From an uncultured Chloroflexia bacterium (GTDB taxonomy: Bacteria; Chloroflexota; Anaerolineae; Aggregatilineales; Phototrophicaceae), in contig CAWJBF010000009.1 in the NCBI GenBank assembly GCA_963841085.1, positions 298,669 through 362,668 on the forward strand: a DNA stretch of 64,000 nucleotides, read 5' to 3'. Position numbers and translations under genes: made by a program. Below, piece by piece: positions 9,578 to 50,732 of this stretch. Every line of letters starts with the position of its first letter. Positions within the stretch are counted from its first letter, which is position 1. The notes under the pieces were generated by a model. It did no database searches. It worked only from the letters and a program-made list of their open reading frames with translations, and was not told the DNA's origin.

Positions 9578-9606
9578 ATTATAGCGGCAGGCACGGGGCT
9601 GAACAA
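9578..9606 (-). promoter_or_regulatory. sigma70-type promoter of tRNA-Cys
   Basis: TTGTTC-N17-TATAAT on the minus strand, -10 box 11 nt before the tRNA. Confidence 0.75.
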
Positions 9607-9625
9607 GGGCAGGCGGAGCATGAAT

Positions 9626-10006
9626 CAGGGCTATCGCATCAAAATTGAGCATCACGTACGAACCTATCCCCAGACCCGCAACGCGCCCGCACCTCGCTTA
9701 TCCGCGACCACCCGATCCACCACAACGTCGCCTGCAGCGCGCGCACCTGTTCTATGATGAAACCGTGCCCCATTGCCACGCAGGACGATTGCAAACCACC
9801 ATGCCCCGCCGCTGTGCATCCAGTGTCCTGTATTCTGTCCGTTTGTCCGGCTCGTTTTCCCCTCAGAGGTGTCCCACTGTCTTAAATCTGTCTCGCTGTC
9901 CGGCTCCGCCAAAAGCTCACAACAAGGCCCCCCGCATCTTCCACGCGCGGTAAGGGGGTTCGGGGGTCAGGTTTGTACCTGAGCCAGTTTTGAGGCAATC
10001 GCCCTG
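9626..10006. mobile_element. Non-autonomous ISAs1-like element (MITE), copy A, 381 bp
   Basis: Terminal IRs cagggctatcgcatcaaaa / ttttgaggcaatcgccctg; perfect 10-bp target duplication GAGCATGAAT (9616-9625 and 10007-10016). Confidence 0.92.
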
Positions 10007-10142
10007 GAGCATGAATGAGCCGATTACGGCGGCGCGACAAACACATGGAGTCACTCTGTGGAACGGGTAAGTTTTGAGCACCATGTAACGGTAATCACCC
10101 TGCTCCTTGCGCGCACGCGCCAGAATCGGCACAATCGGAGGT

Positions 10143-11261
10143 ATGGACAACGACGAAACACGCGACCCCATTGAAGACGCTCCCGGGCCTTCAGAAGCCG
10201 TAGAGGTTCCGGCAGACGACATGCATGAAGCTGCCTCGCCCGAACCGGCGATGGCGGATATGTTCAGTTCACTTGACGAGCCGGTTCAGGCTGAGACAGA
10301 AGCTGCGCCGCCTGAAGCAGTCGAACCGCCGGATGAAGTGGACGCAACGGCTGCCGAACCTGACCCGTCAGAAGCAGAGGCGGAAGCAGACACCGGGGCG
10401 ACCGACGAACCGAAGCCGGAAGCACAAGCGGATGAGGTAATCGAGGGTGTCTCTATCTCCGAGTCCGAGGCACACGCCGAGCCTGAGGCAGAAGCCGCAT
10501 CCGAAGAGTCTGATCAATACGAAGACTCGGAGATAGCCGAAGAAGAGCCTGAAGTTGCGGTCAGCTACGACCTGCCGCAGGCATTGTTCGACGCCGGCAT
10601 CGATGTAGACGCCGCCCTTGGTGCGCTGTCATTCGAACTGGCCTCAAGCAGCTATGACGAAGACCACGCGGCCGCGTCCCGGCTGCCGCCGTTCTCACCC
10701 CCGGACTATCACCCGAAGCTGCGTATGCCATCCGCGATCAGGCTGCGCCGCGGGCAGATCGGCTCGGTGGTTCCGGCGCTGATCCTGATCGGGCTTGGCG
10801 CATGGATGACGCTGTCCAACGCCGCCGGCGCGCCACTTGACCCCATGTTGGTCGGCATGATCCTCGTGGGCGGGCTGATGGTGTCGTTTGCCGCCGAATG
10901 GCTGTTCAGCGGCCGCTGGGCACGCGGCCTGCTGCTGGTGGCCTTGCTGGCGCTGTTTGCCGCCGGTGGCTCAGCGCTTGTGTTGCAGTCGGGCGCAGAT
11001 AATGCCCTGGTCGCGTATCCGCTGCTGCTGTCGGCGCTTGGCATCGCCATCATCCTCAGCGGGCTGCTGGCGCGGCCGGTGGAGCGCGTGATGCTCGGGC
11101 CGGGCATGGTCTTTATCACGGCGGGCATCGTCGGCTTTCTGGTGCTCGACGGCGTTATTCCGGCCACGGTGCTGTCCACCGCCGCCGCCTATTGGTTTGT
11201 GCCGGCAACTATCGTCCTGCTGCTTGTGCTGCTGCCGCTGATCTTCCGCAAGCCGTCGTAG
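10143..11261 (+). CDS. Membrane protein with long acidic disordered N-terminus and about 6 TM helices
   Basis: GGAGG Shine-Dalgarno; E/D/A/P-rich first ~170 aa, hydrophobic C-terminus. Confidence 0.75.
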   Translation: MDNDETRDPIEDAPGPSEAVEVPADDMHEAASPEPAMADMFSSLDEPVQAETEAAPPEAVEPPDEVDATAAEPDPSEAEAEADTGATDEPKPEAQADEVIEGVSISESEAHAEPEAEAASEESDQYEDSEIAEEEPEVAVSYDLPQALFDAGIDVDAALGALSFELASSSYDEDHAAASRLPPFSPPDYHPKLRMPSAIRLRRGQIGSVVPALILIGLGAWMTLSNAAGAPLDPMLVGMILVGGLMVSFAAEWLFSGRWARGLLLVALLALFAAGGSALVLQSGADNALVAYPLLLSALGIAIILSGLLARPVERVMLGPGMVFITAGIVGFLVLDGVIPATVLSTAAAYWFVPATIVLLLVLLPLIFRKPS

Positions 11262-11276
11262 CGGCGGGCGTGGCCT

Positions 11277-12365
11277 GTGCGCATCGCCATCGACGCCAGC
11301 CGCACCACCGCCGCGCGCGTAACCGGCACGGAACGCTACGCGCTTGAGGCGATTCGCGCGCTCATCCGGCTCAACACAAGTCACGAAATCACCCTGTATT
11401 TCCGCGATGCTCCGCCGCCTGATCAGTTTCCGCCGTCAGCGCAGGTCATGCAGCGCGTCATACCCTTTCGTCGCGCATGGACGCATCTTCGCTTTGCGGC
11501 TGCGCTCACGGCAGATCGGCCGGATATCGCCTGGGTGCCCGCTCATACCCTGCCGCTGCTGTTTCCCGGCCGCGCCGCTGTCACCGTACACGACCTCGGC
11601 TACAAGCTGTTCCCCGAAGCGCATCCGCTGCGCCAGCGCCGCTATCTCGACTGGACGACCGCGCACAGTGCCCGGCGCGCTGCCGTCGTTTTTGCCGACA
11701 GCCACGCCACAGCCCGCGATCTGACGCACTTCTACGGCACGCCGGAAGCGAAAATCCGCGTCGTCTACCCGGGCGTGGACGCCCCGCCCGTTGGTGACAT
11801 TCAAGCCGTGCGGGCGCGCTATCGGCTTCCCGAGCGCTATTTTCTGTTTCTCGGCACGCTTCAACCGCGCAAGAACATCGAACGTATCGCACGGGCCTAT
11901 GCCCAGTGGCGCGCGACCCACTCGGGTGAGGACGTGGGGCTGGTGCTGGCCGGCGCGCAAGGCTGGCTGTTCGACCCCGCCTGGACGGCCGGCGTTGAAG
12001 GCATCACCCTGACAGGCTACGTCGATGATACTGACCGGGGCGCGCTGTACGCCGGGGCGCTGGCGCTCGTGTTTCCGTCGCTCTACGAGGGCTTCGGCTT
12101 TCCAGCGGTTGAAGCCATGAGCTGCGGCACGCCGGTGCTGGCCAGCAGTACATCCAGCCTGCCTGAGCTGGTGGGCGACGCCGGTTTGTTGGTCGATCCA
12201 CTCAATACTGATGAGATCGCAAACGGCATGGCGCAGTTGAGCGACGATTTGACGATACGACAGCAGTTCGCCGAACGCGGACGAGCGCAGGCGGCACAGT
12301 TCACCTGGGAGGCGGCCGCACGGGGGATTCTGGCGGGGCTGGAAGGGGCAGCTCAGGCGCCTTGA
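11277..12365 (+). CDS. Glycosyltransferase family 4 (GT-B)
   Basis: MRIAIDAS, TVHDL, GTLQPRKN, FPSLYEGFGFPAVEAMSCGTPV. Confidence 0.95.
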   Translation: MRIAIDASRTTAARVTGTERYALEAIRALIRLNTSHEITLYFRDAPPPDQFPPSAQVMQRVIPFRRAWTHLRFAAALTADRPDIAWVPAHTLPLLFPGRAAVTVHDLGYKLFPEAHPLRQRRYLDWTTAHSARRAAVVFADSHATARDLTHFYGTPEAKIRVVYPGVDAPPVGDIQAVRARYRLPERYFLFLGTLQPRKNIERIARAYAQWRATHSGEDVGLVLAGAQGWLFDPAWTAGVEGITLTGYVDDTDRGALYAGALALVFPSLYEGFGFPAVEAMSCGTPVLASSTSSLPELVGDAGLLVDPLNTDEIANGMAQLSDDLTIRQQFAERGRAQAAQFTWEAAARGILAGLEGAAQAP

Positions 12366-12434
12366 GACCTTACGAGCACAAACGCGTACTTCAACGTATC
12401 ATTGACTGCAATCTTCTCAAGACATCGGTGTGTT

Positions 12435-12833
12435 GTGCCAACTGTGACCGCTCTGCCCATCGAAGGACGCCGTGCCCTGCTGATGAAGTGGGAGCGTGAG
12501 CCGGACAGCCGCGATGTGCGCAACGCCTTCGTACACATGACGACTGTGCTCAACGCGCAGCAGCGTCCGCACTGGATCGTCGTAGACATCAAGTCCAATC
12601 CGGCTTTTCCGATGGTCGAAACGATTGCCGGTGCATTCTGGGGGCCATCGCGTAGCCCGGCATTTGCCGAGTGGCTGGTGGTCGGTTCATCCACTGCCGC
12701 GCGAACGATTGGCGGCACGCTCAGCCGCATCGCCAAACGGGATAATATCCGCTGGTTCAGCACCATGGACGAGGCGCTAGGCTATCTGGCTCACGCCGAG
12801 TTAACCACGCCCGCGTCAGAAACGCCCTTGTGA
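12435..12833 (+). CDS. Hypothetical protein (STAS/SEC14-like small alpha/beta domain)
   Basis: WIVVDI.. and C-terminal F.TMDEALGYL pattern. Confidence 0.55.
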   Translation: MPTVTALPIEGRRALLMKWEREPDSRDVRNAFVHMTTVLNAQQRPHWIVVDIKSNPAFPMVETIAGAFWGPSRSPAFAEWLVVGSSTAARTIGGTLSRIAKRDNIRWFSTMDEALGYLAHAELTTPASETPL

Positions 12834-12895
12834 GCGCGCCGCTTCAGCGCCGATAATGGGCCGCTGAATTCGCCGCACCGTTCGAGGGTCTACTG

Positions 12896-14791
12896 CTGTC
12901 CACGCCCGCTCCACACCGCCTGCTCGTCGTTCAGCTTGCCGACATCGGCGACCTGGTGCTGTCTACCCCGGCGCTGGCGGCCCTGCGTGAAGCTCACCCG
13001 TCCATGCACGTCGCGCTGCTGACCACACTGGCGGCTGCGCCTGTCGTGGAAGGCGGCCCGCTGGTCGATGAGGTGCTCACCAGTTCGCGCGCTGTCCTCA
13101 ATCCGCGCCATCCCTCACTCACGGATACGTGCGCTGCGACAGCGCTGATGCGCAAACTGCGCGCCGGCGCGTACGACACCATCCTCTTTCTGCACCATCT
13201 CACCACACAGGCGGGCGCACTCAAGTTGGCTGCATTCGCGGCCGCTGCCAGCAGCCCGCGCCGCGTCGGCCTCGACAATGGACGTGGCTTCTTCCTCACG
13301 CACCGGCTGGAAGATCAGGGCTTCGGCGCGCGCCATCAGGCGAAGTACTGGCTCGATCTGGCGGCGCTGCTCGGCGCTGATCCAACCCCGCGCCCAGCGC
13401 AAGTGTTCATCAGCGCCGCCGACCGCGATTGGGCTACTGAAAAACTCCAGTTTGAGCCCTCACCCCCTGCCCCCTCTCCCTCAGGGAGAGGGGATCGATT
13501 TGCCGTCATTCACGCTGGCAGCGGCGGCTACAGCCGCGCGCGCCGCTGGGAGCCCACAAAGTTTGCGACCGTCGCTGACCGACTTGCCCGTGAGCGCGGC
13601 CTGCGGCTGGCGTTGGTGGGTGGCCCAAGCGACGATACCGCTGCTGTTCAGGAGGCACTCACAGCTTCGGCTCTCGATCTCAGCAGCCAAACATCCGTTG
13701 GCCAGTTGGCGGCCGTACTCGAACGCGCATCCGTGTTCATCGGCGCGGATAGCGGCGTGATGCATCTCGCGGCGGCCGCCGGTGCGCCGATCGTGGCTGT
13801 ATTTGGCCCGAGCAATCACGAAGCCTGGGGGCCGTGGACGCCTAACGGCCGCCCCTTCGTCGTGCGCAGCGCCCCGGAATGCAGCCCGTGCAGCTATACC
13901 GGTCACAGCGTAGGCCTGCGCGAGGGCTGCGCCGCCCGCACCTGTATGAGGCTGATCACTGCCGATCATGTGGCCGAAGCGGCATTCGCCCTGCTCGATG
14001 ACCAGCCTCCACCAACATCCGCCCCGCCAATCGATACAGACCGCTGGACGCGCACGGTCTCGCTGCTCAATCTGCCTGTCAGCGCCATCACGTATGACGA
14101 CTGGCTGGCACAAATTGGTGGCTGGGTGCGTGAAACACCGCGCCAGTTTCATCACGTATGCACCATCAACCCCGAAATGGTAATGATCGCGCAGCAAGAC
14201 GCGAACTTCCGCCATATTCTGCAGCGCGTCGATTTGACAGTGCCGGATGGCATCGGCCTGCTTTGGGCGGCGCGGCGGCGCGGCCAGCCACTGCCCGAGC
14301 GCGTAACCGGTTCGGATGGCGTGCCGATCATCGCCGAACGCGCGGCGCGTGAAGGCTGGCGGCTGTTCCTCCTCGGCGCAGCGCCGGGCGTCGCGGAAAA
14401 AGCCGCCGCCGTGCTGTGCGCCCGCTTTCCGGGTCTGCAACTCGCTGGCACATTCAGCGGCAGTCCATCGCCCGAGCAGGAAACCGAACTGTGCGCGCGG
14501 GTCAACGCCAGTAGGGCCGATGTGCTGTTCGTGGCTTACGGCGCGCCCGAGCAGGACAAGTGGATCGCCCGCAACAGCCCGCGCCTGAACGTGGCGATGG
14601 CGATGGGCGTGGGCGGCTCGTTCGACTTCATCGCCGGTATCGTGCCGCGCGCCCCCCTGTGGCTGCGCCGTGCCGGGCTGGAATGGCTCTACCGGCTGTA
14701 TTTGCAGCCTTGGCGCATCAAGCGTATGCTGCGCCTGCCGCGTTTCGTGCTAGCCATCCTCACTGAACGGACTTCACCTCATGAACGCTGA
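12896..14791 (+). CDS. Fusion of GT9 heptosyltransferase-like and WecB/TagA/CpsF (GT26) glycosyltransferases; probable CTG start
   Basis: N-terminal LLVVQLADIGDLVLSTPAL, DSGVMHLAAA and VFGPS; C-terminal TINPE, PDGIG, RVTGSD, GAPEQDKW, GVGGSFD, GLEWLYRL. Confidence 0.9.
   Translation: MSTPAPHRLLVVQLADIGDLVLSTPALAALREAHPSMHVALLTTLAAAPVVEGGPLVDEVLTSSRAVLNPRHPSLTDTCAATALMRKLRAGAYDTILFLHHLTTQAGALKLAAFAAAASSPRRVGLDNGRGFFLTHRLEDQGFGARHQAKYWLDLAALLGADPTPRPAQVFISAADRDWATEKLQFEPSPPAPSPSGRGDRFAVIHAGSGGYSRARRWEPTKFATVADRLARERGLRLALVGGPSDDTAAVQEALTASALDLSSQTSVGQLAAVLERASVFIGADSGVMHLAAAAGAPIVAVFGPSNHEAWGPWTPNGRPFVVRSAPECSPCSYTGHSVGLREGCAARTCMRLITADHVAEAAFALLDDQPPPTSAPPIDTDRWTRTVSLLNLPVSAITYDDWLAQIGGWVRETPRQFHHVCTINPEMVMIAQQDANFRHILQRVDLTVPDGIGLLWAARRRGQPLPERVTGSDGVPIIAERAAREGWRLFLLGAAPGVAEKAAAVLCARFPGLQLAGTFSGSPSPEQETELCARVNASRADVLFVAYGAPEQDKWIARNSPRLNVAMAMGVGGSFDFIAGIVPRAPLWLRRAGLEWLYRLYLQPWRIKRMLRLPRFVLAILTERTSPHER
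13457..13493 (+). repeat. Palindromic CCCTCACCCC...CCCTCTCCC/GGGAGAGGGG repeat inserted in frame in the GT9 linker
   Basis: Perfect 10-bp stem cccctctccc-tca-gggagagggg translated as PSPPAPSPSGRG; same motif intergenic at 63782-63820. Confidence 0.8.
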
Positions 14792-15779
14792 TCTCAAGCG
14801 CTGGATTCCCGCGCTGGCCGGGCTGAATGTCCTCGTCGTGGGCGACCTCATTCTCGACGAATATCTGATTGGCAGCGCCACGCGCCTCAGCCGGGAAGCG
14901 CCGATACCCGTGCTTGAGTTTGAGGAGCGACGCCTGATTCCGGGGGGAGCCGCTAACCCAGCCGCCAATATTGCCGCGTTGGGCAGCACTGCCGTACAGT
15001 TGGGCGTGATCGGCGCGGACGCCGACGCCACTGCGCTGCGCCAGGTATTGCAGGCGCGCGGCATTGATACCTCGGCGCTGGTGATCGACGCCGCCCGCCC
15101 CACCACCGTCAAAACGCGGGTGATGGCGCATATGGGCCTGCGCTATCCGCAGCAGGTGGCGCGCATCGACCGCGTTTCGCGCGCGCCGCTGCCACTGGCC
15201 GTCGAGCAGCAGATTCGCCACCACCTTCACCATCACACGCCGAAGGTGCAGGCCGTGTTGTTCTCCGACTATCACGCAGGCCTACTATCGCTTGGATTGG
15301 TCGAAGCAGGTCGCAATCTTGCCCGCCAGTCTGGGGCGCTGCTCGCCGCCGACGCGCAGGGTGAGCTGCAAAAGTACGCGGGCTTTGATGTGGTGAAATG
15401 CAATGCCGACGAAGCCCGCGCGTTCCTGCGCCGCGCGCTCAGCACCGACGCCGATTTCGCCGCCGCTGCGCGTGAACTCACCGCGACCCTGCACGTGCGC
15501 CGCGCTGTCGTCATCACACGCGGCGCAGACGGCGCAACAGTCGCCCTGCCCACCGAAGGCGAACATCACTGCCCGGCACCGCAAACGACCGAGGTTTTCG
15601 ACACGGTTGGTGCAGGCGATACCGCGATTGCCGTGCTCTCGCTGGCGTTGACGGCGGGCGCAACTCCAGTCGAGGCGGTCATACTCGCCAATATCGCCAG
15701 CGGACTGGTCGTGCGCCGCGTGGGTAACTACGCGCCCAGCGCCGATGAGCTGCTCGAAGCGCTAAAAACGACTGATTGA
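14781..15779 (+). CDS. D-glycero-D-manno-heptose-7-phosphate kinase (HldE/RfaE domain I, HldA-like; PfkB family)
   Basis: VLVVGDLILDEY..G..TRLSREAPIPV, GGAAN.A.N, T.KTRV, DTVGAGDT. Confidence 0.88.
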   Translation: MNADLKRWIPALAGLNVLVVGDLILDEYLIGSATRLSREAPIPVLEFEERRLIPGGAANPAANIAALGSTAVQLGVIGADADATALRQVLQARGIDTSALVIDAARPTTVKTRVMAHMGLRYPQQVARIDRVSRAPLPLAVEQQIRHHLHHHTPKVQAVLFSDYHAGLLSLGLVEAGRNLARQSGALLAADAQGELQKYAGFDVVKCNADEARAFLRRALSTDADFAAAARELTATLHVRRAVVITRGADGATVALPTEGEHHCPAPQTTEVFDTVGAGDTAIAVLSLALTAGATPVEAVILANIASGLVVRRVGNYAPSADELLEALKTTD

Positions 15780-15826
15780 ACTACTGAGACACGGAGAGAT
15801 ACATTTGAACCGCCAGCGGTTCAAGT

Positions 15827-16543
15827 CTATCTTCGTAGCACGCGGTAGGCGTTCAGGTCGCCGGTTTCGCCGTCAGCGCGATACGCATCGGCCAGCGCTA
15901 AACCGCTGGCCGCCACCAGCGCGTCGAGTTCTGCGTCATCGGTGTGGTGGCAGTAGCGCAGCGCCGGTGTATCGCCGGCGCGCCAGTCGAGCAGATATTC
16001 GTTGTCCTCAAGCGTGAGTCCGGCTGGCGGCTGCACAATCCGCTGACGGAAGCGCTCGTATTCCCGGAAGCGCCACGCAGTAAACGTCAGCAAGCCGCCC
16101 GGAGCCGTCCGCGCCGCCAACGCCGTGACTAACGCCTCGCGCCTCAATGCGCCCGGCACGTGGTGCAGCACGCCGAACAACGTCACCAGATCGAACTGCC
16201 CGGCCGGCAGCGCATCCACATCCATGATGAAGTCCGCCTCGATCCAGGTGGCGGTCACAGTCGTATTGTCCGCCAGTGCGTAACGGCCAGCCTCCAGCAG
16301 CGCCGGACTGCTATCGACGCCTGTGTAGTCCAGCGCCACCCCTTCGCGCGCCAGAAACAGGGCGAGTCGGCCGTTGCCACAACCTGCATCCAGCACCCGC
16401 AGCGGCCTTACGGGTGGCAGATGGTTCAGCAAGCGCCGCCAGCCCGGCCATGCAGACTGCCTGGACTGGTCGAAGTCTGCCGACACCGACTGGTAGAATT
16501 GGCGGTTGAGATCGTTCAGGCGCAGCGCCGTAGCTTCATCCAC
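15827..16543 (-). CDS. Class I SAM-dependent methyltransferase
   Basis: LRVLDAGCGNGR, FGVLHHVPG; FYQSVSADFDQSR resembles Trm9/ALKBH8-like N-termini. Confidence 0.85.
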   Translation of the reverse strand: MDEATALRLNDLNRQFYQSVSADFDQSRQSAWPGWRRLLNHLPPVRPLRVLDAGCGNGRLALFLAREGVALDYTGVDSSPALLEAGRYALADNTTVTATWIEADFIMDVDALPAGQFDLVTLFGVLHHVPGALRREALVTALAARTAPGGLLTFTAWRFREYERFRQRIVQPPAGLTLEDNEYLLDWRAGDTPALRYCHHTDDAELDALVAASGLALADAYRADGETGDLNAYRVLRR

Positions 16544-16569
16544 CGCCTGCCCTGCCTTTGGGAGCACGA

Positions 16570-17400
16570 ATGCCCATTCCACTCGCCTTCAACTATTCTC
16601 GCGAAGCCGCCGCGTTGCTCGAAGCGGGCCTGATCGCGATTGATCGCTGGAAATGCCCGCCGTGGCCCGAACTCATTGCCGAAGCACGCCAGTCGCGCCC
16701 GGTCTACGTCCATTTTGACCTGTATGCCGGCGGCGGCCACATGGAAGCCATAGACTGGAGCGTGGTTGAGCGCATGATGGACGAGACCAGCACGCCGTTC
16801 GTCAACCTGCATCTCACACCCACCCTTGCCGACTTCGGTTTCAGCAATGAGCCGCTGACAGCGGCGCAGAACGCGCAGGTTCTGGAAACCATGATGCGCG
16901 ATGTGGGCTTCGTCGCGCGCCGCTTCGGTTCCGAGCGCGTCATTGTCGAGAATATCCCCTATCGCGGAAAACCGGAACGTAACGGCTGGGAGTTCGTACG
17001 CGCCACTGTCGAACCGGCCGTTTTCACGCAGGTGCTGACCGAAACAGGCACGGGGCTGCTGTTCGATATTGCCCACGCCACCATTACCGCCAATACGCTG
17101 AATATCAATGTACGCGATTACATCACCGCGCACCCACTGAATCGGCTGCGCGAACTGCATATTGGCGGCGTGCGAAGCCATCAAGGCGATCTGGAAGACC
17201 ACTTGGCGATGACGGACACTGATTGGCGTCTTTTCGAGGAGATGCTTGGCTTGATCGCTGTGGGCCGCGCCGCCAAACCGTGGCTGGTGGCCTGCGAATA
17301 CGGCGGGCTGGGCGAAAACTTCGCATGGCGCAGCGAAACGGTGGTGATTGCCGAGGACGCGGTGCGAATGAAGGCGATGCTAGAATTTGCCAGCCGCTAA
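16570..17400 (+). CDS. DUF692-family multinuclear non-heme iron enzyme (MNIO-like TIM barrel)
   Basis: Metal-ligand pattern VNLHL, VENIPY, LLFDIAHA, ELHIGG, EDH, CEYGG. Confidence 0.75.
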   Translation: MPIPLAFNYSREAAALLEAGLIAIDRWKCPPWPELIAEARQSRPVYVHFDLYAGGGHMEAIDWSVVERMMDETSTPFVNLHLTPTLADFGFSNEPLTAAQNAQVLETMMRDVGFVARRFGSERVIVENIPYRGKPERNGWEFVRATVEPAVFTQVLTETGTGLLFDIAHATITANTLNINVRDYITAHPLNRLRELHIGGVRSHQGDLEDHLAMTDTDWRLFEEMLGLIAVGRAAKPWLVACEYGGLGENFAWRSETVVIAEDAVRMKAMLEFASR

Positions 17401-17428
17401 TGCAGGCTGAATATTCAAGCTGGTAAAC

Positions 17429-17495
17429 GTGGGCGCAACACGCTGTGCCCCTACAGGTGTGTGTTTTGTAGAGGCAAGGCATGCCTTGCCCCTAC
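17429..17495. repeat. GTAG-type REP doublet
   Basis: gtgggcgcaacacgctgtgcccctac followed by gtagaggcaaggcatgccttgcccctac. Confidence 0.75.
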
Positions 17496-17626
17496 CCGGC
17501 GGCCGTTTACCATCCTAAACAGGAAAATTGCATAAGCGGCCGGCTGCCAAACAGACTAGGCCTCTCCGAGGACAAAAGCTGCGGGCGCACACACCAATTC
17601 AGCCTCTGCAAGAGGCTTGTCAGTAT

Positions 17627-17656: not shown

Positions 17657-17685
17657 GGCATCCAGTCTGTTAGGGGTGAGGTTGG

Positions 17686-18557: not shown

Positions 18558-18560
18558 GGC

Positions 18561-39415: not shown

Positions 39416-39417
39416 TC

Positions 39418-41479: not shown

Positions 41480-41514
41480 AGTGGCACATCCGAAGGACTG
41501 ATTGAACCGCAAAG

Positions 41515-41924
41515 CATACAAACCTCAACCCCCAACCCCCTCATCCACGCGCGGGGAGAGAGGTGACTTGTTGTGAGCCTTTGGCGGAGCCAGACAGCGA
41601 GACAGAGAATCGAAGCTAACAGACATCCTCTGAGGGGAAAACGAACCGGACAGCCGGACAGAATACAGGACACTGGATGCACAGCGGCGGGGCAAGCTGG
41701 TTCGCTATCGTCCTGCATGGCAATGGGGCACGGTTCCATCGTAGCATGGGTGCGCTCCGTGCAGGCGACGTTGTGGTGGATCGGGTGGTCACGGATAAGC
41801 GGGGTGCGGGGCATCAACGGTGCGCCCGCCTCCTTCCCATGTTTAGGGAAGTGGCCGGGCGTGATGCAGGAGGGCTTGGGGGTGTGGTTGGTACGCGATG
41901 CCCAATTTTGATGCGATAGCCCCG
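41515..41924. mobile_element. ISAs1-like MITE, copy B (inverted; left terminus truncated)
   Basis: Colinear with the reverse complement of copies A and C; right IR ttttgatgcgatagccccg; outer part of the left IR and the target duplication are missing. Confidence 0.85.
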
Positions 41925-41943
41925 GATAAGCGTATGGCTGAGG

Positions 41944-41972
41944 TTGACCGCGTGCAGTGTGTAACATATACT
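41944..41972 (+). promoter_or_regulatory. sigma70 promoter of the ABC-F leader
   Basis: TTGACC-N17-TATACT. Confidence 0.8.
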
Positions 41973-42049
41973 GTTGAGTGGCCCGGCTGCACACGTTCTG
42001 AACCTCTGCGCCCCCGAGTTTTTCAACCGCCTGAGTGAAGTGAGTGGAC

Positions 42050-42175
42050 ATGCGCACCAGCACCCGTCAACTGTTCCGATAGTTCTGCGGACTGACCTGC
42101 TGCACTGCGCTGGCTGATCGATCAGCCTTGATAGAGTGCCGCTGTGGGCCTGTCCCGCGGCGGCACTCTTGATTC
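42050..42175 (+). promoter_or_regulatory. Putative attenuator: leader peptide MRTSTRQLFR* (42050-42082) plus a strong hairpin (42133-42169)
   Basis: uORF in a ~270-nt leader; hairpin agagtgccgctgtggg/cccgcggcggcactct followed by tgatt. Confidence 0.6.
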
Positions 42176-42251
42176 GCATCCAGAGCGCCGCGCCGTTGGA
42201 GTTTGTTCTCCATCGCTCTTACTCTCGACTGCACGCTCAGGCGGATTCCCC

Positions 42252-43938
42252 ATGTTGTTTTCCATGCAAGACATCAGCAAGACCTACGACTATCGCGCCA
42301 TCCTCGATGCGGCTGCGCTGTCATTGGCACGCGGCGACCGGATCGGATCTGGTCGGCGCTAACGGCGCGGGCAAATCGACCCTACTCAAGATCATCGCAG
42401 GCGTGCTGGAAGCGGATCGCGGCGTCCGCACGATTGCAGTGGGCGTGCGTTTGGGCTATCTGGCGCAGGGGCCGGATGATGACGGCACAGATACGATTGA
42501 TGAGGTGATTGCCTCGGCGCTCGCTTCCGTTCGTGCGCTTGAAACCCGGATGCGCACACTGGAGATGGCGTTGCCAACCCTGCAAGGCGATGAACTGGAT
42601 GCGGCGCTGACCGAGTATGGCGATATAAGCGATCACTTCGAACGCGCAGGCGGCTATGAGCTGGCGTCCCGCGAGGCGCAGGTGCTGGCCGGTTTGCGGC
42701 TCGATCATCTGCCGCGTGATCGGCGTGCCAGCACGCTCTCAGGCGGCGAACGGGCGCGGCTGGGGCTGGCGGCCCTGCTGCTGCAAGCGCCCGATGCGCT
42801 GCTGCTCGATGAGCCGACCAATCATCTCGATCAGGCCAGCCTGAACTGGCTGGAAACATATTTGGCTGCGTATGCAGGCGGGGTGGTGATCGTCTCGCAC
42901 GACCGCGAGTTCTTGAACCGCACCGTGAACGCCATCGTCGAAATCGATGAGCATACGCACCAAACGCGGCGCTTCACCGGCGATTATGACACCTACGCCA
43001 TGGCCAAAACGCGCGAACGAGCGCAGTGGGCAGCGGACTATGCGCGCGAACAGGACGAAATCCGCGCGCTGCGGCTGGAGATGAAGGAGACGGCGCGCCG
43101 CAACAGCTTCAAGCCGCCAACCGATAACGACAAGTTCGTTGTTTACATCAAGAAGCAAACGCATGCCGCAACCGTTTCCAAGAATGTGCGCGCCGCCGCC
43201 GAGAAGCTCAGCCGAATCGAAGACAACCCGATTCCGAAGCCACCCAAGGATCTGCGCTTTGGCGCGGACTTCGACCCGGAAGCATTGGCAGGCCGCCTGC
43301 CCCTGACAGTCAGCAACCTGCATAAGGCCTATGGTGAGCGCGTGATTTTGAACGGCGTGTCGCTGGCGCTGGGCGCGCGCGGCCGGATGGTGTTGGTGGG
43401 GCCGAACGGCAGCGGCAAGTCGACCTTGCTGCGCCTGCTGGCTGGCACTGAAGCGGCAGATGCTGGCGAACGAATGCTGCATCCCGCCGCGCGCATCGGC
43501 TATCTCGATCAGGATGGCGCCGCGCTCGACCCCGCGCAAACAGTATTTGAGGCCTATCGCGCCGAACTCGACGGCCCGGATCAGGTGTGGAAATCGACCC
43601 TGATCGAGAGCGGCATGTTCCGCTATGACGACCTCGACCTGCGCGTGAGCGCCATTAGCAGCGGCCAGCGACGCAAGCTGCAAATCGCGCGCCTGATCGC
43701 GCAACGGGCAAATCTACTGATTCTGGATGAGCCGACCAACTTCATCAGCTTCGATGTGCTGGAGTCTTTCGAGGCGGCGCTGCGGCTGTTCCCCGGCCCG
43801 GTGATCGCAGCTTCGCACGACCGGCGCTTCATCCGGCAGTTCGGCGGCGACTTGTGGCAGGTGCAAGGCGGGTCGCTGCGCCAGTGGATCGGCACAGCGG
43901 ATGAGTACTTTGCGGCCCTGGAGGCGACTGAGGCATAG
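42252..43938 (+). CDS. ABC-F ribosomal protection protein, TlrC/CarA/OleB/SrmB-like (frameshift near 42345)
   Basis: Two NBDs (GANGAGKS, LSGGE, LDEPTNHLD; GPNGSGKS) and no TM domain; extended linker PTDNDK...SKNVRAAAEKL. Confidence 0.85.
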
Positions 43939-43971
43939 ATTTGAGAACAGCGGTTTAAGCTGCGTTGTTCG

Positions 43972-44514
43972 CTACATTTTGTACTCGTCGATGTAGCTAA
44001 ACAGCGCCGGCACATCGGGCACGAATCCGAGCAGGTCATCCAGCGAAGTACGCAGGAACTGGGCGGCCTGCATATGCTCCAGAAGCGCGCGCAGCGGGTT
44101 GTAGAAGCCGCCCTGATTGAGCACGACCAGCGGTTTAGGCGTGATTTTAAGCTGGCGCAGGCTGAGAATTTCAAACACCTCATCGAGCGTGCCGATGCCG
44201 CCGGGAAGCGCCACGAACGCATCGGCGCGGCTCTCCATCTCCGCCTTGCGCGAGCGCATGTCCCTCGTCACGATCAATTCATCGGCCAGATGATAGGCCT
44301 GTTCGCGGTCAACCAGCGCCTGAGGAATCACGCCGCACACATGTCCGCCGCCGGCGTGGATGCTGCGCGCGATCTCGCCCATCAGCCCGAGATTGCCGCC
44401 GCCGTAGACGAGCGTATCACCACGGGCGGCCATCTGGCTGCCAAGATCGGCGGCGGCGCTGTGAAATTCTGGGTCCAGCGTGATGCTGGCCGAGCAGTAG
44501 ACGCAGATATTCAT
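43972..44514 (-). CDS. LOG family protein (TIGR00730)
   Basis: ICVYCSAS, LVYGGG..GLMG, RK..M, LPGGIGTLDE. Confidence 0.95.
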   Translation of the reverse strand: MNICVYCSASITLDPEFHSAAADLGSQMAARGDTLVYGGGNLGLMGEIARSIHAGGGHVCGVIPQALVDREQAYHLADELIVTRDMRSRKAEMESRADAFVALPGGIGTLDEVFEILSLRQLKITPKPLVVLNQGGFYNPLRALLEHMQAAQFLRTSLDDLLGFVPDVPALFSYIDEYKM

Positions 44515-45014
44515 GTGCGAACCGTTCTCGGCGTAGTCGTCAAGCCCAGCGCGTAGGCCACGTCGGCCGTGTGATCCTTCTGGTGGCGGGCAATGACGCG
44601 AATGTACATGTCAATCGGGATCATGCCGATGACCGGATGACGGCCCACCTTTTCCAGGTCAGCATCTGTCAGCGTATCGAGCCATGCCATCAGTTCGGCG
44701 CGGGTGGCAGCCTGGGCGGCAAGCGCCTCCGGGCCAGTCATCGCGTCGCGCTTTTCGACCGACCGCATGTTGTAGCGATCCACATCGAAATCTTCGGGAA
44801 CGGTACTCACGCCCGTGTTGACGATGGACTGCATCTGCCCAAGCAGGCCTCGTTCGGCCTCGGCAAGATGAATGGCGACCTGGCGAACATTCCATGCTGG
44901 GCCATCGGCATACACCGGCGTATCCCAGCGGCCGTCCGCCTGCCCAAAGACAGAGTCCATTTCGACCTGCGCGGCCACAAGCCGTTTCTTCAAAAACTCC
45001 GTGCGCTCAGACAT
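44511..45014 (-). CDS. DinB-family protein
   Basis: WNVRQVAIHL, GRHP, H..DH. Confidence 0.85.
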   Translation of the reverse strand: MSERTEFLKKRLVAAQVEMDSVFGQADGRWDTPVYADGPAWNVRQVAIHLAEAERGLLGQMQSIVNTGVSTVPEDFDVDRYNMRSVEKRDAMTGPEALAAQAATRAELMAWLDTLTDADLEKVGRHPVIGMIPIDMYIRVIARHQKDHTADVAYALGLTTTPRTVRT

Positions 45015-45021
45015 GAAGACC

Positions 45022-46095
45022 TTACATCTGCACGTAACTGTTTTCGGCCAAAATCAGGCGGTGTACCGATGGGCCACCGCTGGAAGCCGCAACGGTTGAA
45101 TTGTCGGCGATCAGGCTGCTGTCGATGCGGCCGGAAATGCTGCGGATAGTGCAGTCTTTCATGATGATGCTGGCGTCAATTTCGGCGTTCTCAACCACCA
45201 CGTTGTTGCCCAGCGACGTGTAAGGGCCAATGTAGCTGTTCTGAACCGTGACGTTGCGGCCGATAATCACCGGCCCGCGCACGATGCTGTTGACAATGCG
45301 GCTGCCCTCGCCAATTAGTACGCGCGGTGATACGTCTGAGGTGCCCATGATGATGGTGGGATCATCGGGATGCGGTGAGTAGGGTAAATCACCCAGCACC
45401 AGTTGATTGGCATGGATGATCGAGTCCGGCTTGCCGGCGTCGATCCACCACCCCTGCAGGGTGTATGGATGCACTTCGGCGCCGCTGCTGATGACATACT
45501 GGATGGCATCAGTGATTTCCAGCTCGTTGCGCCACGACGGCTTGATATGGTCGATAGCGTCAAAGATCGAGCGGCGGAACAGATATGCGCCGGAAATGGC
45601 GAGGTTGGACGGCGGCTCTTTCGGCTTCTCAACTACGCGGGCGATTTTGCCGTCGATGATCTCGGCCACGCCAAAACGCTGCGGGTCGGGCACTTCGATG
45701 AGGGCGATAGCCAGTTCAGCCGATGAGGCAGGGAAGCCGCGCAGCAGCCCCTCCATCTTGTCCTGAAAGATGTTGTCGCCCAGCAGCACGCAGAACGGCT
45801 CGTCGCCCACGAAGTCGTGGGTGAGGCGAATGGCGTGGGCCAGCCCCTTCTGCTCGCGCTGAACGATGTAATCGAGATGGACGCCATAGTCCGCGCCACT
45901 GCCTAACTGCGCGACGATGGGCGAGTCAAGATCGTTGACGACGATGCCGATTTCTTCCAGCCCAGCGTTGTGCAGCACGTCGATGGCGTAGCCAATCAAC
46001 GGCTTGTTGGCGACGGGGACTAGCGGTTTGGGCATGGTTAGCGTAACGGGGCGCAGGCGCGTGCCCTGCCCGGCTGCCAGAATGACTGCCTTCAT
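45022..46095 (-). CDS. Glucose-1-phosphate thymidylyltransferase, long form
   Basis: LAAGQGTRLRP.T...PKPL, GLAHA, LGDN, EKP, ELEITDA, C-terminal beta-helix. Confidence 0.92.
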   Translation of the reverse strand: MKAVILAAGQGTRLRPVTLTMPKPLVPVANKPLIGYAIDVLHNAGLEEIGIVVNDLDSPIVAQLGSGADYGVHLDYIVQREQKGLAHAIRLTHDFVGDEPFCVLLGDNIFQDKMEGLLRGFPASSAELAIALIEVPDPQRFGVAEIIDGKIARVVEKPKEPPSNLAISGAYLFRRSIFDAIDHIKPSWRNELEITDAIQYVISSGAEVHPYTLQGWWIDAGKPDSIIHANQLVLGDLPYSPHPDDPTIIMGTSDVSPRVLIGEGSRIVNSIVRGPVIIGRNVTVQNSYIGPYTSLGNNVVVENAEIDASIIMKDCTIRSISGRIDSSLIADNSTVAASSGGPSVHRLILAENSYVQM

Positions 46096-46199
46096 AGTGA
46101 GCCTCTTTAAGCGGCGAGCTAACGGTAACGTTTATACACGCGCCAGGATGGATTTGCGAACCGAACGACTTAACCTCACTCCCGGCCATTCTCTATGTA

Positions 46200-46232
46200 A
46201 AAAGGCGGACCACAAGGGGCCCGCCTTCTTTA
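46200..46232 (-). terminator. Intrinsic terminator of the S41 peptidase gene
   Basis: aaggcggcccc...gtccgcc followed by a T-run on the minus strand. Confidence 0.6.
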
Positions 46233-46257
46233 TCGCTCGTGTGACCGAGTTTATTGC

Positions 46258-48643
46258 TTACTCGGCTGCTTCCACGCTGAGCGTGAACGCACCAGCGGAC
46301 GAGTTGTCGTACGTACCGACTTCGATGATGATGGTCTGTCCAGCCGTGAGTTCCAGCCCTTCGATGACCGAGTTGATGGTCACGCCCAGCTCGATATCGT
46401 CGTTCTCGGCCAGCAGGTTGCCGTCGGCGTCATACACGCGCAGGTAGCTGTCGAACTCGCCGTCAGGGTCGGTCACGCTGATGTTGACGGTTACGTCTGT
46501 TTCGGGAGTTCAGCGTGAACTGCACGCGCTCGCCCACATTCAGACCATCAGAAACTCCCGCGCCCACCTCAATGGGGCCGCCGTCAATGATGACCAGCTC
46601 GACCGGTTCACTGCTGATGCCGAGGAGGCTGTTGAGGTGCGACACAGCCGCATTCAGCACCGAGTCGCCACCACCCAGGTCGTTCTGCAGATTGTCGAGC
46701 GTGACCGGTACTTCGACGTTGGGAACGACACCGATGCCCTCGACGATGATTTCACCCTCGGGCGTCACTTCGCGCACAATCGGCATACGTACGTACTGAC
46801 CTTCAGGCATGGCGAAGTCTTCCACGCCGCCACCCAGCCCACCCGTGCTGTAATAACCCACCACGTCCGAGCGGTCAGCAAATGACGCGGTATAGCTGAA
46901 GAATTCGCAGGCACTGGAGCAGTTGGGGCCAACGAGCAGCGCGACTTCACCGCCAAAACGCAGCGATTCGTCCGGCAGGTAGATCACGCCCGGGCGCTCC
47001 TCATCGCGGTAGAACTCACCCTTGTCGGGGTCGAACTGTTCACCGTAGCTGATCACCATCGGCTCGTTGAACAGATAGGCAGCCATCTGATCGGCGAGGA
47101 AGCCACTGCCGCCGCCGTTCTGGCGCATGTCGATGATCAGGCCCGGGATGCCGTTTTCGTTGAGCGTCTGCATCAGGCGCTCCCACAACTGAACGGTGAG
47201 CACTTCATTATCGTCGAAGGCGTTGATGCTGACGTAGCCATAGCCGCTGTCGAGGATCTGGAAATTGACCGGCAGCAAAGCCTGCGGCGCGCCAAAGCGG
47301 AATGACGACACGCTGAAGCTATCGCCCTCGTCGGCCGAGGTGAGCGTCACCGTGGACGGTTCGGCGTCACCTGGATTCTGATAGGTCACTTCCACATCCG
47401 TACCGAGGGGTGCACGAGTCGCGTAGCGAAGCTGCTGAAGGCGCTCATTCTGCTCGATGCTGAAGGGCGCGGAATAGGCAATCGTGCCTGCAACGAACTC
47501 GTCAACTGGCAGGCCGCCAAGCTCGATAATGGACGCTCCCAACTCGATACCGGCTTCATCCGCCGGGCCGCCGGGCGTGAGATAGAAAACGTCTACGCCG
47601 AGAGGCGCGCCGGTTTCATCCTCAATATCGCGGATAGCCATGCCAAGCCCGCCCGATACGGCAGTCTGGAACTCCTGATCTTGCTCGGCGCTGCCGGGAT
47701 AGAAGGCAACGTGGCCGTCAGGAATGCTCCAAAGGAAGCCACGCAGGGCATTCATGTAGGCGCTGGGGTCGTTGTCTTTCTCAGCTTGGGCGAACAGCGG
47801 ACGAAACTCTTCCGTCAGCGCGTCCCAGTCCATACCCTTCTGGTCGGTGAACGGATACTGTTCGCGGAACTTGGCGACCATGGCATCGAAAGCGGCGGCA
47901 TAACCCATGCCCGAGAAGTCATCGAGCGCCGAACCCTCCGGCTCAACCAGGTCGATCACGCTTTCGCGCGAACGGTCGAAGGTGAATGGCGTTGTGTTCA
48001 GGTTGACGACCGTCCAGCCGGCGGGCAGCGTGACAATGGGGTCGTCTTCTGTGAACAGAAGGCCGTCGTCGCCGAAGCCAGACGGGAAACCCTGCTCATC
48101 ATCGGGGGAGTAGACGACGTAGAAACCGCCGTCAACCTCATCCTGCTGGTCTACTTCGCTGCGGAAGTGGGTGCCCGCGTAAGCGGTTGACCAGCCGCCG
48201 CCAAACAGATCGCGCTCTTCGAGGAACGGGTCACCGAAGATGTTGGTCCAGTAGGCGGGGGTGAAGATCTGAACGCCCACGTCTTCCATACCATCATTAT
48301 CCACATCGCTCGGTGTGCCCTGTGGCACCTGCGGCAGCGTGATGCTGAAGCCAACCGGCGAGCTGAAGAAATCGCTGGTCAACTGGCCCATCGTCTGTGA
48401 CGCGAGCGGCATCAGGAAGCCCTTGTCGCGCACGACGAAACCGGCCTGATCTTCGAGGATGACGACGGGTTGAGCCACACCACTGGTGAAGAGCGGGTTG
48501 GTGTAGACCATCACGCCACGGATGACCACGGGGCCACCCTCGTCATTGGTGATTTCGGCGGCGGGCGCATCCTGAGCGAAAGCTGGCAGCGCAAGCACGG
48601 CCAGCGCCATGATTGCCACAAGAGTTAGAAAGCGAACACGCAT
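46258..48643 (-). CDS. Secreted S41 peptidase with PDZ and C-terminal PPC domain (frameshift near 46490)
   Basis: Signal peptide ..PAFAQD; DGH, IIDMRQNGGG, SACE; PPC motif DSYLRVYDADGNLLAENDD in ORF 46258-46476. Confidence 0.85.
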
Positions 48644-48828
48644 AATTTATACTTCTCCTTCAATGCGAAGGCATTGAGTATACGACAAAACGAAACTGTT
48701 CAAGGCGCAGTTGTTAAGAATATTATGAAAAAATCGTTCAGCACAACTCTGCCGAATGGGAGTGACACCAGCGCGCTATTGAACTGGCATTGCCCGATGA
48801 ACAGGCGGAGTCAGTTCGGGCAAGGATT

Positions 48829-50115
48829 TCAACTTTCGATGATGACTATCTCCTGCTTCACATACGCTCGCACCTTCGCCGGCAAATCGTGGTGCACATG
48901 CATCCCGGGGCCAACCTGCGCACCTGGCCCGATCTTCACGCCCGGCATCGTCATCACATCGACGCCGAGAAACGCGCCTTCACCAATGACTGCGCCGAAT
49001 TTGTCGCGGCCGGTGTCGAGCTTGTTGCCTTTCACCGTGCTGAACACATGGCCGTGGTCGATGCGCAGATTGGCCGTCGTGCAGCCCGCCGAGAAGTTGA
49101 CGTGCGGCGCGAACACCGAATCGAGCACGCGGCAGGCATGCATGGCGCAGTGCTCGGCCACGTAGCTGCGCGCCACTTCGGTCGTGAAGCCGACCTCGCT
49201 GCGATCCAGCACCATCGACTGACGCACGAGCGCATTGTTACCAATAACGACGCCCGCGCCCACGTAGGCCGGCCCCACCACCGCCGCGCCCGGGAAAATC
49301 TTCGCGCCCGGCCCGATGAAGACATCGCCCACCAGTGTGGCCGTCGGGGCAATGAATGCCGATTCGTCCACCTGCTGGCCCTTGATCTGACCGAGAAACG
49401 CATTCATCACATCCAGCACATGCCACGGAAACTTGAGCGCCGCCCACGGCCCGCGATAAGGCGAGACCTTGAACACCATCGTCTTCATCAGCGCGTCCAT
49501 GGCGCGCTCGTAGTGGTCATCCGTCGTCAGATCGCGGGCATATTCCACGCGCAAGGCATCGAAAAGCGCGCGGCCACTGGGATACAAATGGATGACAATG
49601 TTGACCAGATTGCTGGGCCGGTTGTCTGCGCCCGGCTTCTCGACAATACCGGTGATGCGCCCTGCCCCGTCGACGACCAGATAGCCGCCCGGAAAATACT
49701 CGTCGCGCTCACTGCCAGCCACAAACGCGGCTTCGCGATCAGCCGCGTGCAGCGCCAGCATGTTCGCGTGTACGGATTCATCGACCACATCGTGGATCTG
49801 GTTAATATAGATCGACTGGTCGGGGTCGAGCACAGGCTCGGCCGCCAGAATCGCGTCGCCCATGCCTTTCGGCTCGGTTTGCACAACCACACGCACGCGC
49901 ATGCCAGTGACGTAGCTCGCCATCGCCGTAATATCGTCGGCGTTCTCCGGATTGCCAACCACCACCGCATCGGTGAATCCCAACGCCGCATATCGTTTGA
50001 GTTGAGCCACCAGCAGCGGTTCGGGGCCGAAGCGCAGCAGCGACTTCTCGCGGATCGGCCACATACGCGATGACGCGCCGCCGGCCAGCACAATCAGAGT
50101 GGGTGTTGAGGCCAT
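48829..50115 (-). CDS. Sugar-phosphate nucleotidyltransferase/acetyltransferase (archaeal-type GlmU-like)
   Basis: LAGGASSRMWP, EKPG, hexapeptide repeats, TANLR, KFGAVIG. Confidence 0.85.
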   Translation of the reverse strand: MASTPTLIVLAGGASSRMWPIREKSLLRFGPEPLLVAQLKRYAALGFTDAVVVGNPENADDITAMASYVTGMRVRVVVQTEPKGMGDAILAAEPVLDPDQSIYINQIHDVVDESVHANMLALHAADREAAFVAGSERDEYFPGGYLVVDGAGRITGIVEKPGADNRPSNLVNIVIHLYPSGRALFDALRVEYARDLTTDDHYERAMDALMKTMVFKVSPYRGPWAALKFPWHVLDVMNAFLGQIKGQQVDESAFIAPTATLVGDVFIGPGAKIFPGAAVVGPAYVGAGVVIGNNALVRQSMVLDRSEVGFTTEVARSYVAEHCAMHACRVLDSVFAPHVNFSAGCTTANLRIDHGHVFSTVKGNKLDTGRDKFGAVIGEGAFLGVDVMTMPGVKIGPGAQVGPGMHVHHDLPAKVRAYVKQEIVIIES

Positions 50116-50190
50116 GTGTAGGCGTCCTTTTCAGTGAACATCACCCCACGTGCGGAGAAAGGCCGGGGGTAAGGCTGGTTTGTTTGCGCC

Positions 50191-50219
50191 AGTATAAATC
50201 AGCCGACTCATAATGGCAC
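50191..50219 (-). promoter_or_regulatory. sigma70-type promoter of the GlmU-like gene
   Basis: GTGCCA-N17-TATACT on the minus strand. Confidence 0.6.
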
Positions 50220-50238
50220 AGGGATGCAGTCTCAGCCT

Positions 50239-50732
50239 CAGGGCGATTGCATCAAAAATGGATCACGTACAAACCTCACCCCAGTCCGCCTGCATCACGC
50301 CCAGCCACTTCACCAAATGTGCAAAGGAGGCGGGCGCGCCGTTGACGCCCCTCGCCCCGCCTATCCGTGACCACCCGATCCACCACAACGTCGCCTGCAG
50401 CGCGCGCACCTGTTCTACGATGGAAGCGTGCCCAGTTACCGCGCAGGACGGTCGGGAACCAGCTTAACCCGCCGCTGTGCATCCAGTGTCCTGATTTCTG
50501 TCCGGTTGTCCGTTAGTTTTCCCCTCAGAGGGTGTCTGTTAGCTTCGATTCTGTCTGTCTGTCCGGCTCGTTTTCCCCTGAAGGCTGTCTCGCTGTTCTG
50601 ATTCTGTCTGGCTGTCTCGCTCTGTCTGGCTCAGCCAAAGGCTCACAGCAAGTCGCCTTTCTGTGTGCACAGAGAGGGGGTTTGGGGGAGTGAGGTTTGG
50701 ACGTGATGGCAGATTTTGATGCGATAGCCCTG
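50239..50732. mobile_element. ISAs1-like MITE, copy C, 494 bp
   Basis: IRs cagggcgattgcatcaaaa / ttttgatgcgatagccctg; perfect 10-bp target duplication GTCTCAGCCT (50229-50238 and 50733-50742). Confidence 0.93.

Follow-up and report, generated by a model that had tools for sequence, protein, structure and literature searches.

ISAs1-type MITEs at a fixed distance upstream of predicted promoters, with a possible role for RNA polymerase in their placement

Three MITE copies beside predicted promoters

The 64-kb stretch of DNA analyzed here (the window) carries three MITE copies, A, B and C, each beside a predicted promoter, and the question raised by this locus is what brings an element to rest repeatedly at one distance from a promoter. 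An earlier note on this DNA had placed the element end 42 bp from the -10 hexamer in all three copies, with the -35 box 19 bp outside the end. Upon remeasurement in the sequence, the gaps were 42, 42 and 42 bp, and the -35 hexamers of A (TTGTTC), B (TTGACC) and C (GTGCCA) each began 19 bp from the element end. The promoter-facing end was of the same type in all three.

Copy A (9626..10006, 381 bp) retains both terminal inverted repeats and a 10-bp target duplication, whose promoter-side half (9616..9625) matches its partner (10007-10016) with 0 mismatches. Its motif-predicted -35 (9601..9606, minus strand) and -10 (TATAAT, 9578..9583, minus strand) precede a tRNA-Cys gene (9495..9566, minus strand). 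No joint across copy A was found in the reads over it. Copy B (about 41511..41924) has an eroded distal end; the promoter-side end alone remains, with 1 mismatch, and the target duplication is gone. The predicted -35 (41944..41949) and -10 (TATACT, 41967..41972), both on the plus strand, lie upstream of an ABC-F-type ATPase gene. Copy C (50239..50732, 494 bp) again has both terminal inverted repeats and a 10-bp duplication (50229..50238, partner 50733-50742, 0 mismatches), and its promoter-side junction was seen in sequencing runs X1 and X2. Here the predicted -35 (50214..50219, minus strand) is weak, and the predicted -10 (TATACT, 50191..50196, minus strand) lies upstream of a nucleotidyltransferase ORF (48829-50115). 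On the opposite side of copy C, 33 bp beyond the element, a divergent second TATAAT (50766..50771, plus strand) lies upstream of a SOR/SNZ (pdxS-like) gene.

Site B was also found without the MITE, on one contig of a related strain, where TTGACC-17-TATACT is kept. Since this allele and the window disagree at most of 39 letters, it does not provide a clean pre-insertion site.

Identity of the elements and their likely mobilizer

Judged by their sequence, the window elements are gene-less, non-autonomous MITEs of the ISAs1 family. The first 24 nt of copy A are identical (24/24) to the end of L147, a same-genus ISAs1 element whose transposase scored 410 bits on NF033564. The same end type occurs on most same-genus ISAs1 loci and on the published ISArsp11, an ISAs1-family element described with CAGGGC...GCA-type inverted repeats and a 10-bp duplication (PMC6305408), and elements bearing ends of this kind code for NF033564 proteins. 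The ISAs1-type ends claimed earlier were thus borne out by terminal inverted repeats common to autonomous ISAs1 elements. We counted 39 insertions in the genome, the two-ended copies spanning 178-645 bp, and 10 of 17 two-ended copies carry a 10-bp target duplication with 0-2 mismatches (one further copy has 11 bp, one has 9 bp, and 5 have none left). The elements are therefore short, multi-copy, non-coding, bounded by terminal inverted repeats and flanked by duplications, as MITEs are.

The earlier note had also mentioned an internal ORF, to which we could attach no meaning: the 6 internal ORFs of the MITEs gave no Pfam match, and tblastn of 88 ISAs1 transposases against the 17 MITEs and the whole genome gave no match. 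Copy C had no Rfam match. The MITE cores are 71-100% alike (median 82%), and sequence shared with autonomous elements is limited to the ends. A search for the MITE body in 40 relatives found it absent from 39, with one 25-nt weak match in the other.

NF033564, together with PF13808 + PF01609, defined an ISAs1 transposase; relatives L147 and L066 encode such a protein, and the MITEs do not. ISAs1 matches were present in 18/51 same-genus genomes, and in the MITEs' own genome (G000, 86.7% complete) both the family search and tblastn gave 0 matches to an autonomous ISAs1 element, so the putative partner is taken from relatives. From the shared ends, we infer that an ISAs1 transposase mobilizes the MITEs in trans. 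PF01609 matches in the MITEs' own genome were rejected as the partner, as they belong to other IS types. A PF06782 search of this genome was blank, and the profile gave no match in any control either. The modeled partner transposase is Tn5-like (pLDDT 92.7), with Tn5 as its first structural match (best E 1e-9), and shows no extra domain beyond the Tn5-like body; a sequence search for a solved ISAs1 structure found none.

A genome-wide peak at 42 bp

A sharp, strand-specific peak at 42 bp across the genome had been set in advance as the test of promoter-targeted insertion, and this peak was found. Of 70 scan hits, 14 that scored below 22 and lacked core homology were dropped. TAnnnT lay exactly 42 bp outside 21/56 of the remaining ends, with 5 at 41 and 2 at 43; elsewhere the mean was 0.33 per position. 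Null rates per site were 0.65-0.9% at 42 and 2.0-2.8% at 41-43, and measured against non-coding sites lying 50-200 nt upstream of genes, where the rate is 0.9%, 21/56 corresponds to a binomial p of 2e-28. The inward strand of the same 56 ends was flat. Counted by insertion, 28/39 have the motif at 41-43 (14/17 among two-ended copies) and 11/39 do not. It is thus very probable that ISAs1-type MITEs target promoters, as predicted from motifs.

These 28 phased sites were selected by their -10 alone, and a TTGACA-like -35 nevertheless arose at 19 without selection (T20 T17 G16 A10 C17 A10 at positions 19-24). Positions 0-18 outside the end had no consensus among them, in line with the earlier remark that the sites are not obviously accounted for by DNA sequence. 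The possibility that the promoter was carried along or duplicated was discarded, since the flank of copy B is unique in the genome and the flanks share no sequence at 0-18. An AT-rich target was likewise rejected (49% vs 43%). Downstream-gene direction was similar at phased (23/28) and unphased (21/28) ends and did not separate them. By eye, no such phase was seen in seven copies of a different IS that this genome also carries.

The fixed orientation proposed earlier stood for A, B and C, where the same end faces the promoter, and did not extend to the genome, where 15 insertions present one end type, 7 the other and 6 could not be assigned (15 vs 7 against 50:50, p 0.13). Orientation is therefore biased rather than fixed genome-wide.

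As to which box sets the distance, 14 sites have 16- or 18-bp spacers; 10 of these hold the -35 at 19, 2 hold the -10 at 42 and 2 hold neither, favoring the -35 as anchor (10 vs 2, p 0.04). Within G000 by itself, the -10 varies no more in position than the -35 does (sd 0.58 vs 0.70), and many phased sites, copy C with its GTGCCA among them, have a poor -35 and yet keep the -10 at 42.

The phase in other lineages

The phase recurs in related genomes, as the earlier note had suggested checking: 35/82 other Chloroflexota ends (from 14 genomes by hand count) have the motif at 41-43. In one Anaerolineae MAG, young identical autonomous copies are phased at 8/15 right and 2/14 left ends. These copies bear on the proposal that insertion is random or broadly intergenic and that selection then acts, promoter-breaking copies being lost and copies at -54 kept for aiding transcription. 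The MITEs are indeed old, to judge from their core divergence, and an IS1548 copy in front of lmb increases expression (PMC2875397). However, the phase is already present in the young copies, a promoter can be faced by either end, and purging predicts a plateau beyond 42 rather than a one-base peak, while counts elsewhere average 0.33-0.47; we consider this explanation very unlikely.

Beyond Chloroflexota, young identical autonomous copies are phased as well. IS1548-sized elements of a Lactobacillales genus were phased at 40-43 in 13/16 right and 3/16 left ends, after removal of 19/40 loci that had no paired ends, a single duplicate and 4/20 loci whose end call lacked the initial CA; a Lactobacillales-wide draw yielded only 2/251 genomes. 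An IS of the Gammaproteobacteria class (G358) had the motif at 40 in 4/8 left and 0/9 right ends. The -35 distance had its mode at 19 bp in Chloroflexota, and was 18-19 in the Lactobacillales set and 17-18 in G358. Against a family-wide habit, only 8/22 duplication-defined elements were at 41-43, and only 3/12 plasmid-borne ISAs1 copies at 40-41. We kept separate 34 non-Chloroflexota 18-mer matches; the motif lay at 40-43 in 5 of them, and many are probably no IS ends. G418, G598 and G840 are used for no claim, and G498 was left out of scoring.

A different register appeared in the Bacteroidota class (G877), for which 100/110 ends were read: TAnnTT lies at 30-32 in 22/100 ends, 14 of them at 31, against a background of 0.91, and only 1/100 is at 40-43 (78/100 are unphased). 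As the Bacteroidota promoter box TAnnTTTG spans -12 to -5 (PMC9723704), register 31 falls on this phylum's own predicted -7 motif. The register thus varies by lineage: 40, 41, 42, and 31 in Bacteroidota. Other ISAs1 elements were unphased (G557, 2/28 ends at 42; G343/G470/G377, 1/13 at 40), so the promoter phase is not family-wide in our sample, and some elements seem to be non-targeting.

The G877 flanks are nearly without G at position 25 (1/100), which implies a degree of sequence readout at a position removed from the cut. Together with the anchoring on -35, this might suggest that the transposase itself directly reads the -35/-10 sequence, remote from where it cuts. Poor -35 boxes at many phased sites where the -10 is still at 42 speak against such reading, as does a Bacteroidota element that follows a different host motif, and we give it less credence than any other explanation considered.

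Proposed placement by promoter-bound polymerase

Our best explanation, to which we assign a probability of about 0.6, is that an ISAs1 transposase acting in trans, docked by promoter-bound RNA polymerase holoenzyme, places the MITEs 19 bp upstream of the predicted housekeeping-sigma -35. A Tn5-like transposase dimer would bind the MITE ends and dock on the upstream side of the holoenzyme, at either sigma region 4 on the -35 or the alpha C-terminal domain; a 10-bp staggered cut would follow at about -54 to -45. The core promoter would be left intact, and the element would land in harmless intergenic DNA. The near-symmetric ends would allow both orientations, with a bias, and the Bacteroidota register (31) would lie about one helical turn closer than that of other lineages. 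Tethering to RNA polymerase is favored by the -35 anchoring and by the way the Bacteroidota element follows the motif of its own host, which is a different one, and on balance we infer a transposase-RNA polymerase contact, although a single conserved contact does not simply explain registers ranging from 31 to 42.

Indirect targeting would likewise account for the incomplete penetrance, for insertion in both orientations and for registers that differ by about one helical turn (42 vs 31). In this scenario the transposase would be guided by bent or exposed DNA at the upstream edge of the polymerase, or by another host factor there, without touching the polymerase itself. The modeled transposase, having no domain beyond the Tn5-like body, would fit this as well. 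The one-base sharpness (21/5/2) and the -35 anchoring are, by our reasoning, tighter than steric access usually gives, and we regard indirect targeting as rather unlikely.

Polymerase tethering leads to a broader proposal that we put forward tentatively, at somewhat less than even odds: ISAs1 transposases in at least four phyla may be RNA-polymerase-guided integrases, minimal Tn5-like enzymes that dock on the housekeeping holoenzyme and insert at a lineage-specific helical register in front of any promoter type their host employs. The strategy would then have been invented independently of Mutator-like TnGBS/ISLre2 and of yeast Ty3.

Relation to known systems

Fixed-distance insertion upstream of the sigmaA -35 is described in the main text of Guerillot et al. 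(2014, PMC3942029) for TnGBS ICEs, the ISLre2 family (p-MULT 3) and the ISKra4 group (p-MULT 4). As with the MITEs here, the right end of TnGBS/ISLre2 is usually promoter-adjacent, and both orientations occur with near-perfect inverted repeats (PMC3942029). That the transposase contacts RNA polymerase in its initiation complex is an idea of long standing and likewise only a proposal there (PMC3942029). The mode of action would thus be alike; however, TnGBS/ISLre2 have Mutator-like transposases and lie 15-17 bp from -35 (PMC3942029), whereas here the putative mobilizer is of the ISAs1 type (DDE_Tnp_1_assoc + DDE_Tnp_1, Tn5-like fold) rather than Mutator-like, with a register of 19 bp and a 10-bp duplication. 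That main text contains 0 mentions of ISAs1. In the literature searched (mostly open-access main articles), fixed-distance promoter targeting is published for Mutator-like transposases only, with no statement found of a fixed promoter distance for ISAs1. Flechard et al. reportedly noted in 2013 that IS1548 targets lie close to putative promoters.

IS1548 has repeatedly been found in promoter regions, namely those of lmb, scl1 and murB (PMC2875397, PMC5005324, PMC8744998). At lmb it is reported to lie 9 bp in front of the putative promoter (PMC2875397), a distance that would become 18-19 if counted outside the duplication. Unlike IS1548 and ISArsp11, the MITEs here lack a transposase, and the portions of the IS1548 and ISArsp11 reports covered describe single insertions or hot spots and no fixed-distance rule. 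In yeast Ty3, an analogy drawn in PMC3942029, the transcription initiation machinery also positions insertion, through integrase with TFIIIB/TFIIIC; Ty3 is, however, a eukaryotic retrotransposon using Pol III factors by a shown contact, whereas here a bacterial DDE transposase would act by a putative contact.

If true, a fixed-distance promoter rule would unite the scattered reports of IS1548 expression effects under one mechanism, and promoter homing would then have arisen outside the Mutator group. The proposed contact with RNA polymerase would become testable with a single 378-aa protein, and element ends would pinpoint promoters at single-base resolution in uncultured bacteria without transcriptome data. 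ISAs1 itself is widespread, with matches in 716 plasmid records and in 54/300 Gammaproteobacteria-class genomes.

Most MITE insertions lie at a fixed distance from predicted promoters

The earlier note placed the promoter-side ends of three ISAs1-like MITEs 42 bp from a -10 hexamer, and this gap, recomputed from the sequence, was the same for copies A (9626-10006), B (about 41511-41924) and C (50239-50732), with the motif-predicted -35 beginning 19 bp outside each element end. Copies A and C are bounded by two inverted repeats and flanked by a perfect 10-bp duplication; copy B has lost its far end. Downstream lie tRNA-Cys (A), an ABC-F-type ATPase gene (B) and a nucleotidyltransferase gene (C). 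Divergent genes flank many of the MITEs, which then have a second -10, 27-33 bp beyond the far end (including window 50733-50771).

One contig from sequencing run X1 lacks copy B and carries the same -35, 17-bp spacing and -10 at this site. In this MITE-free allele (window 41925-41966), the majority of the 39 intervening letters are unlike the window, while the flanks on both sides are >99% identical, which suggests a recombination patch rather than a simple insertion. The ABC-F-type ATPase gene (42136-43938) has a long leader (about 41980-42250) and is read in two frames split near 42349, where contigs from three runs have one base fewer than the window, so the window may hold an assembly error there.

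We scanned G000, the 4.5-Mb genome holding the window, with a weight matrix for MITE ends, and retained 56 of 70 end-like matches (score at least 22, or MITE core on the inward side), grouped as 39 insertions. The sharp, strand-specific peak at 42 that the earlier note had proposed to look for genome-wide was present: the -10-like motif TAnnnT, read outward, started at 42 in 21/56 ends, with 5 more at 41 and 2 at 43. Other positions averaged 0.33 and never exceeded 3, and there was no peak on the inward strand. Counting starts at 41-43 as phased, 28/39 insertions and 14/17 two-ended copies qualified. Random non-coding G000 sites gave 0.65% at 42 and 2.0% at 41-43, and sites upstream of genes 0.9% and 2.8% (p about 1e-28). 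Although the 28 phased flanks were picked by -10 alone, with no part played by the -35, their positions 19-24 were TTGACA-like; positions 0-18 showed no consensus. Promoter-phased MITE insertion is real and extends beyond the window. The fixed orientation proposed earlier did not hold up, since typed promoter-facing ends split 15 vs 7 across G000, leaving a bias at most. Downstream-gene direction did not discriminate phased from unphased ends (23/28 vs 21/28).

Selection after insertion could also be invoked to explain these positions; it expects a plateau, whereas we observed a one-base peak, and young identical ISAs1 copies are already phased, both of which argue against it.

The MITE core, which contains CTGT-rich tandem repeats (window 50495-50622), had 36 strong matches across G000, some without recognisable ends nearby, and in copy C it had no Rfam match. 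G000 encodes four RpoD-like sigma factors (L387-L390). It also carries a young seven-copy PF01609 IS of about 1.44 kb with ends CTGGACTTTATCCAA (C1, C5, C8, C9, C10, C11 and C14; L025-L030 plus one more). Inspection of its seven copies revealed no promoter phase of the MITE kind; they are located within purine/pyrimidine-skewed hairpin-like repeats, not at promoters, and a MITE lies about 110 bp away from one of them.

The MITEs share their ends with ISAs1 elements

Family and homology searches found no ISAs1 transposase in G000 (86.7% complete), and the internal ORFs of the MITEs had no Pfam match. The ISAs1 transposase model NF033564 matched in 18/51 same-genus genomes, whose ISAs1 elements have the same ends as the G000 MITEs; the copy A end is identical over 24/24 nt to that of L147, an autonomous element in a same-genus relative, and the ends are the only part shared. 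These transposases have DDE_Tnp_1_assoc and DDE_Tnp_1 domains, cluster with an Anaerolineae one in the transposase tree, and yielded a structure model (pLDDT 92.7) whose best match was Tn5 transposase. Exact end-motif matches came mostly from Anaerolineae and other Chloroflexota; together with the clustering in the tree, this makes a Chloroflexota host probable. In the published ISAs1 member ISArsp11, the ends resemble these and the duplication is again 10 bp long (PMC6305408).

Promoter-targeted transposition is already known; the variant here lies in the ISAs1 transposase family, for which none of the main texts searched states a fixed promoter distance. IS1548 targets near putative promoters or terminators were reportedly described by Flechard in 2013. 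The available part of PMC3942029, which does not mention ISAs1, establishes that the Mutator-like p-MULT 3 and ISKra4 target sites 15-17 bp upstream of the -35, with polymerase contact proposed, whereas the phased G000 MITEs lie 19 bp from the -35. IS1548 is reported 9 bp ahead of a putative promoter of lmb (PMC2875397) and within promoter regions of scl1 and murB (PMC5005324, PMC8744998), according to the accessible portions of these papers; those of PMC9208149, PMC10433421, PMC3281130, PMC10309648 and bioRxiv 2025.07.22.666184 contain no ISAs1 rule.

Promoter phase recurs, unevenly, in other lineages

The phase recurred in related genomes, where the earlier note had proposed to look: 35/82 ends in other Chloroflexota (14 source genomes, hand-counted) were phased, 10 at 41, 19 at 42 and 6 at 43 (background 0.66). 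One MAG with an autonomous ISAs1 copy had 8/15 right and 2/14 left ends phased (p 0.05). A Lactobacillales genus, probably Streptococcus, had 13/16 and 3/16, respectively, over the range 40-43; its elements are mostly 1305-1346 bp, and the published length of IS1548 is 1317 bp. A Gammaproteobacteria genome (G358) had TAnnnT at 40 in 4/8 left and 0/9 right ends. Lineages with promoter phase are dispersed across the ISAs1 transposase tree. Counting against generality are G557 (2/28 ends with the motif at 42), three further genomes (1/13 ends at 40), plasmid copies (3/12 phased) and duplication-defined elements (8/22 phased). G557 (L308-L346) also has a second ISAs1-ended MITE family, whose elements measure about 184 and 454 bp; the duplications are perfect, and there is no clear promoter phase.

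A Bacteroidota genome (G877) holds 55 copies of one ISAs1 element (L408-L477). Across 100 ends read, TAnnTT occurred 4, 14 and 4 times at 30, 31 and 32 (background 0.91) and in only 1/100 at 40-43; the peak at 31 was present on both element ends and with all four motif versions tried. The accessible text of PMC9723704 gives the Bacteroidota promoter box as TAnnTTTG (-12 to -5). If the transposase itself read promoter DNA sequence directly, it would have to accommodate this motif and the weak -35 boxes at phased sites, both of which fit poorly. Indirect structural readout at the promoter may set the distance, and the registers of lineages, about one helical turn apart, speak for it.

What may set the distance

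Phase, strand specificity, duplication length and shared ends are established here, and we put the probability of promoter-targeted insertion by these elements at about 0.9. The MITEs would be moved by an ISAs1 transposase supplied in trans, and promoter-bound holoenzyme would be the ruler that sets the distance; direct tethering of the transposase to promoter-bound polymerase, a contact we infer, is somewhat favoured. With a -10 at 42, the duplicated target would span about -54 to -45. This is the UP-element zone, which is within reach of the alpha C-terminal domain beside sigma region 4. Where the spacer was 16 or 18 bp (14 sites), the -35 stayed at 19 in 10, the -10 at 42 in 2 and neither in 2 (p 0.04), a split that points to the distance being set from the -35 side; G000 taken alone showed no -35 anchoring. 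In the G877 flanks, G occurs at position 25 from the end in 1/100 (counts of 11-25 at neighbouring positions), marking a contact with the target some 20 bp away from the centre of the cut.
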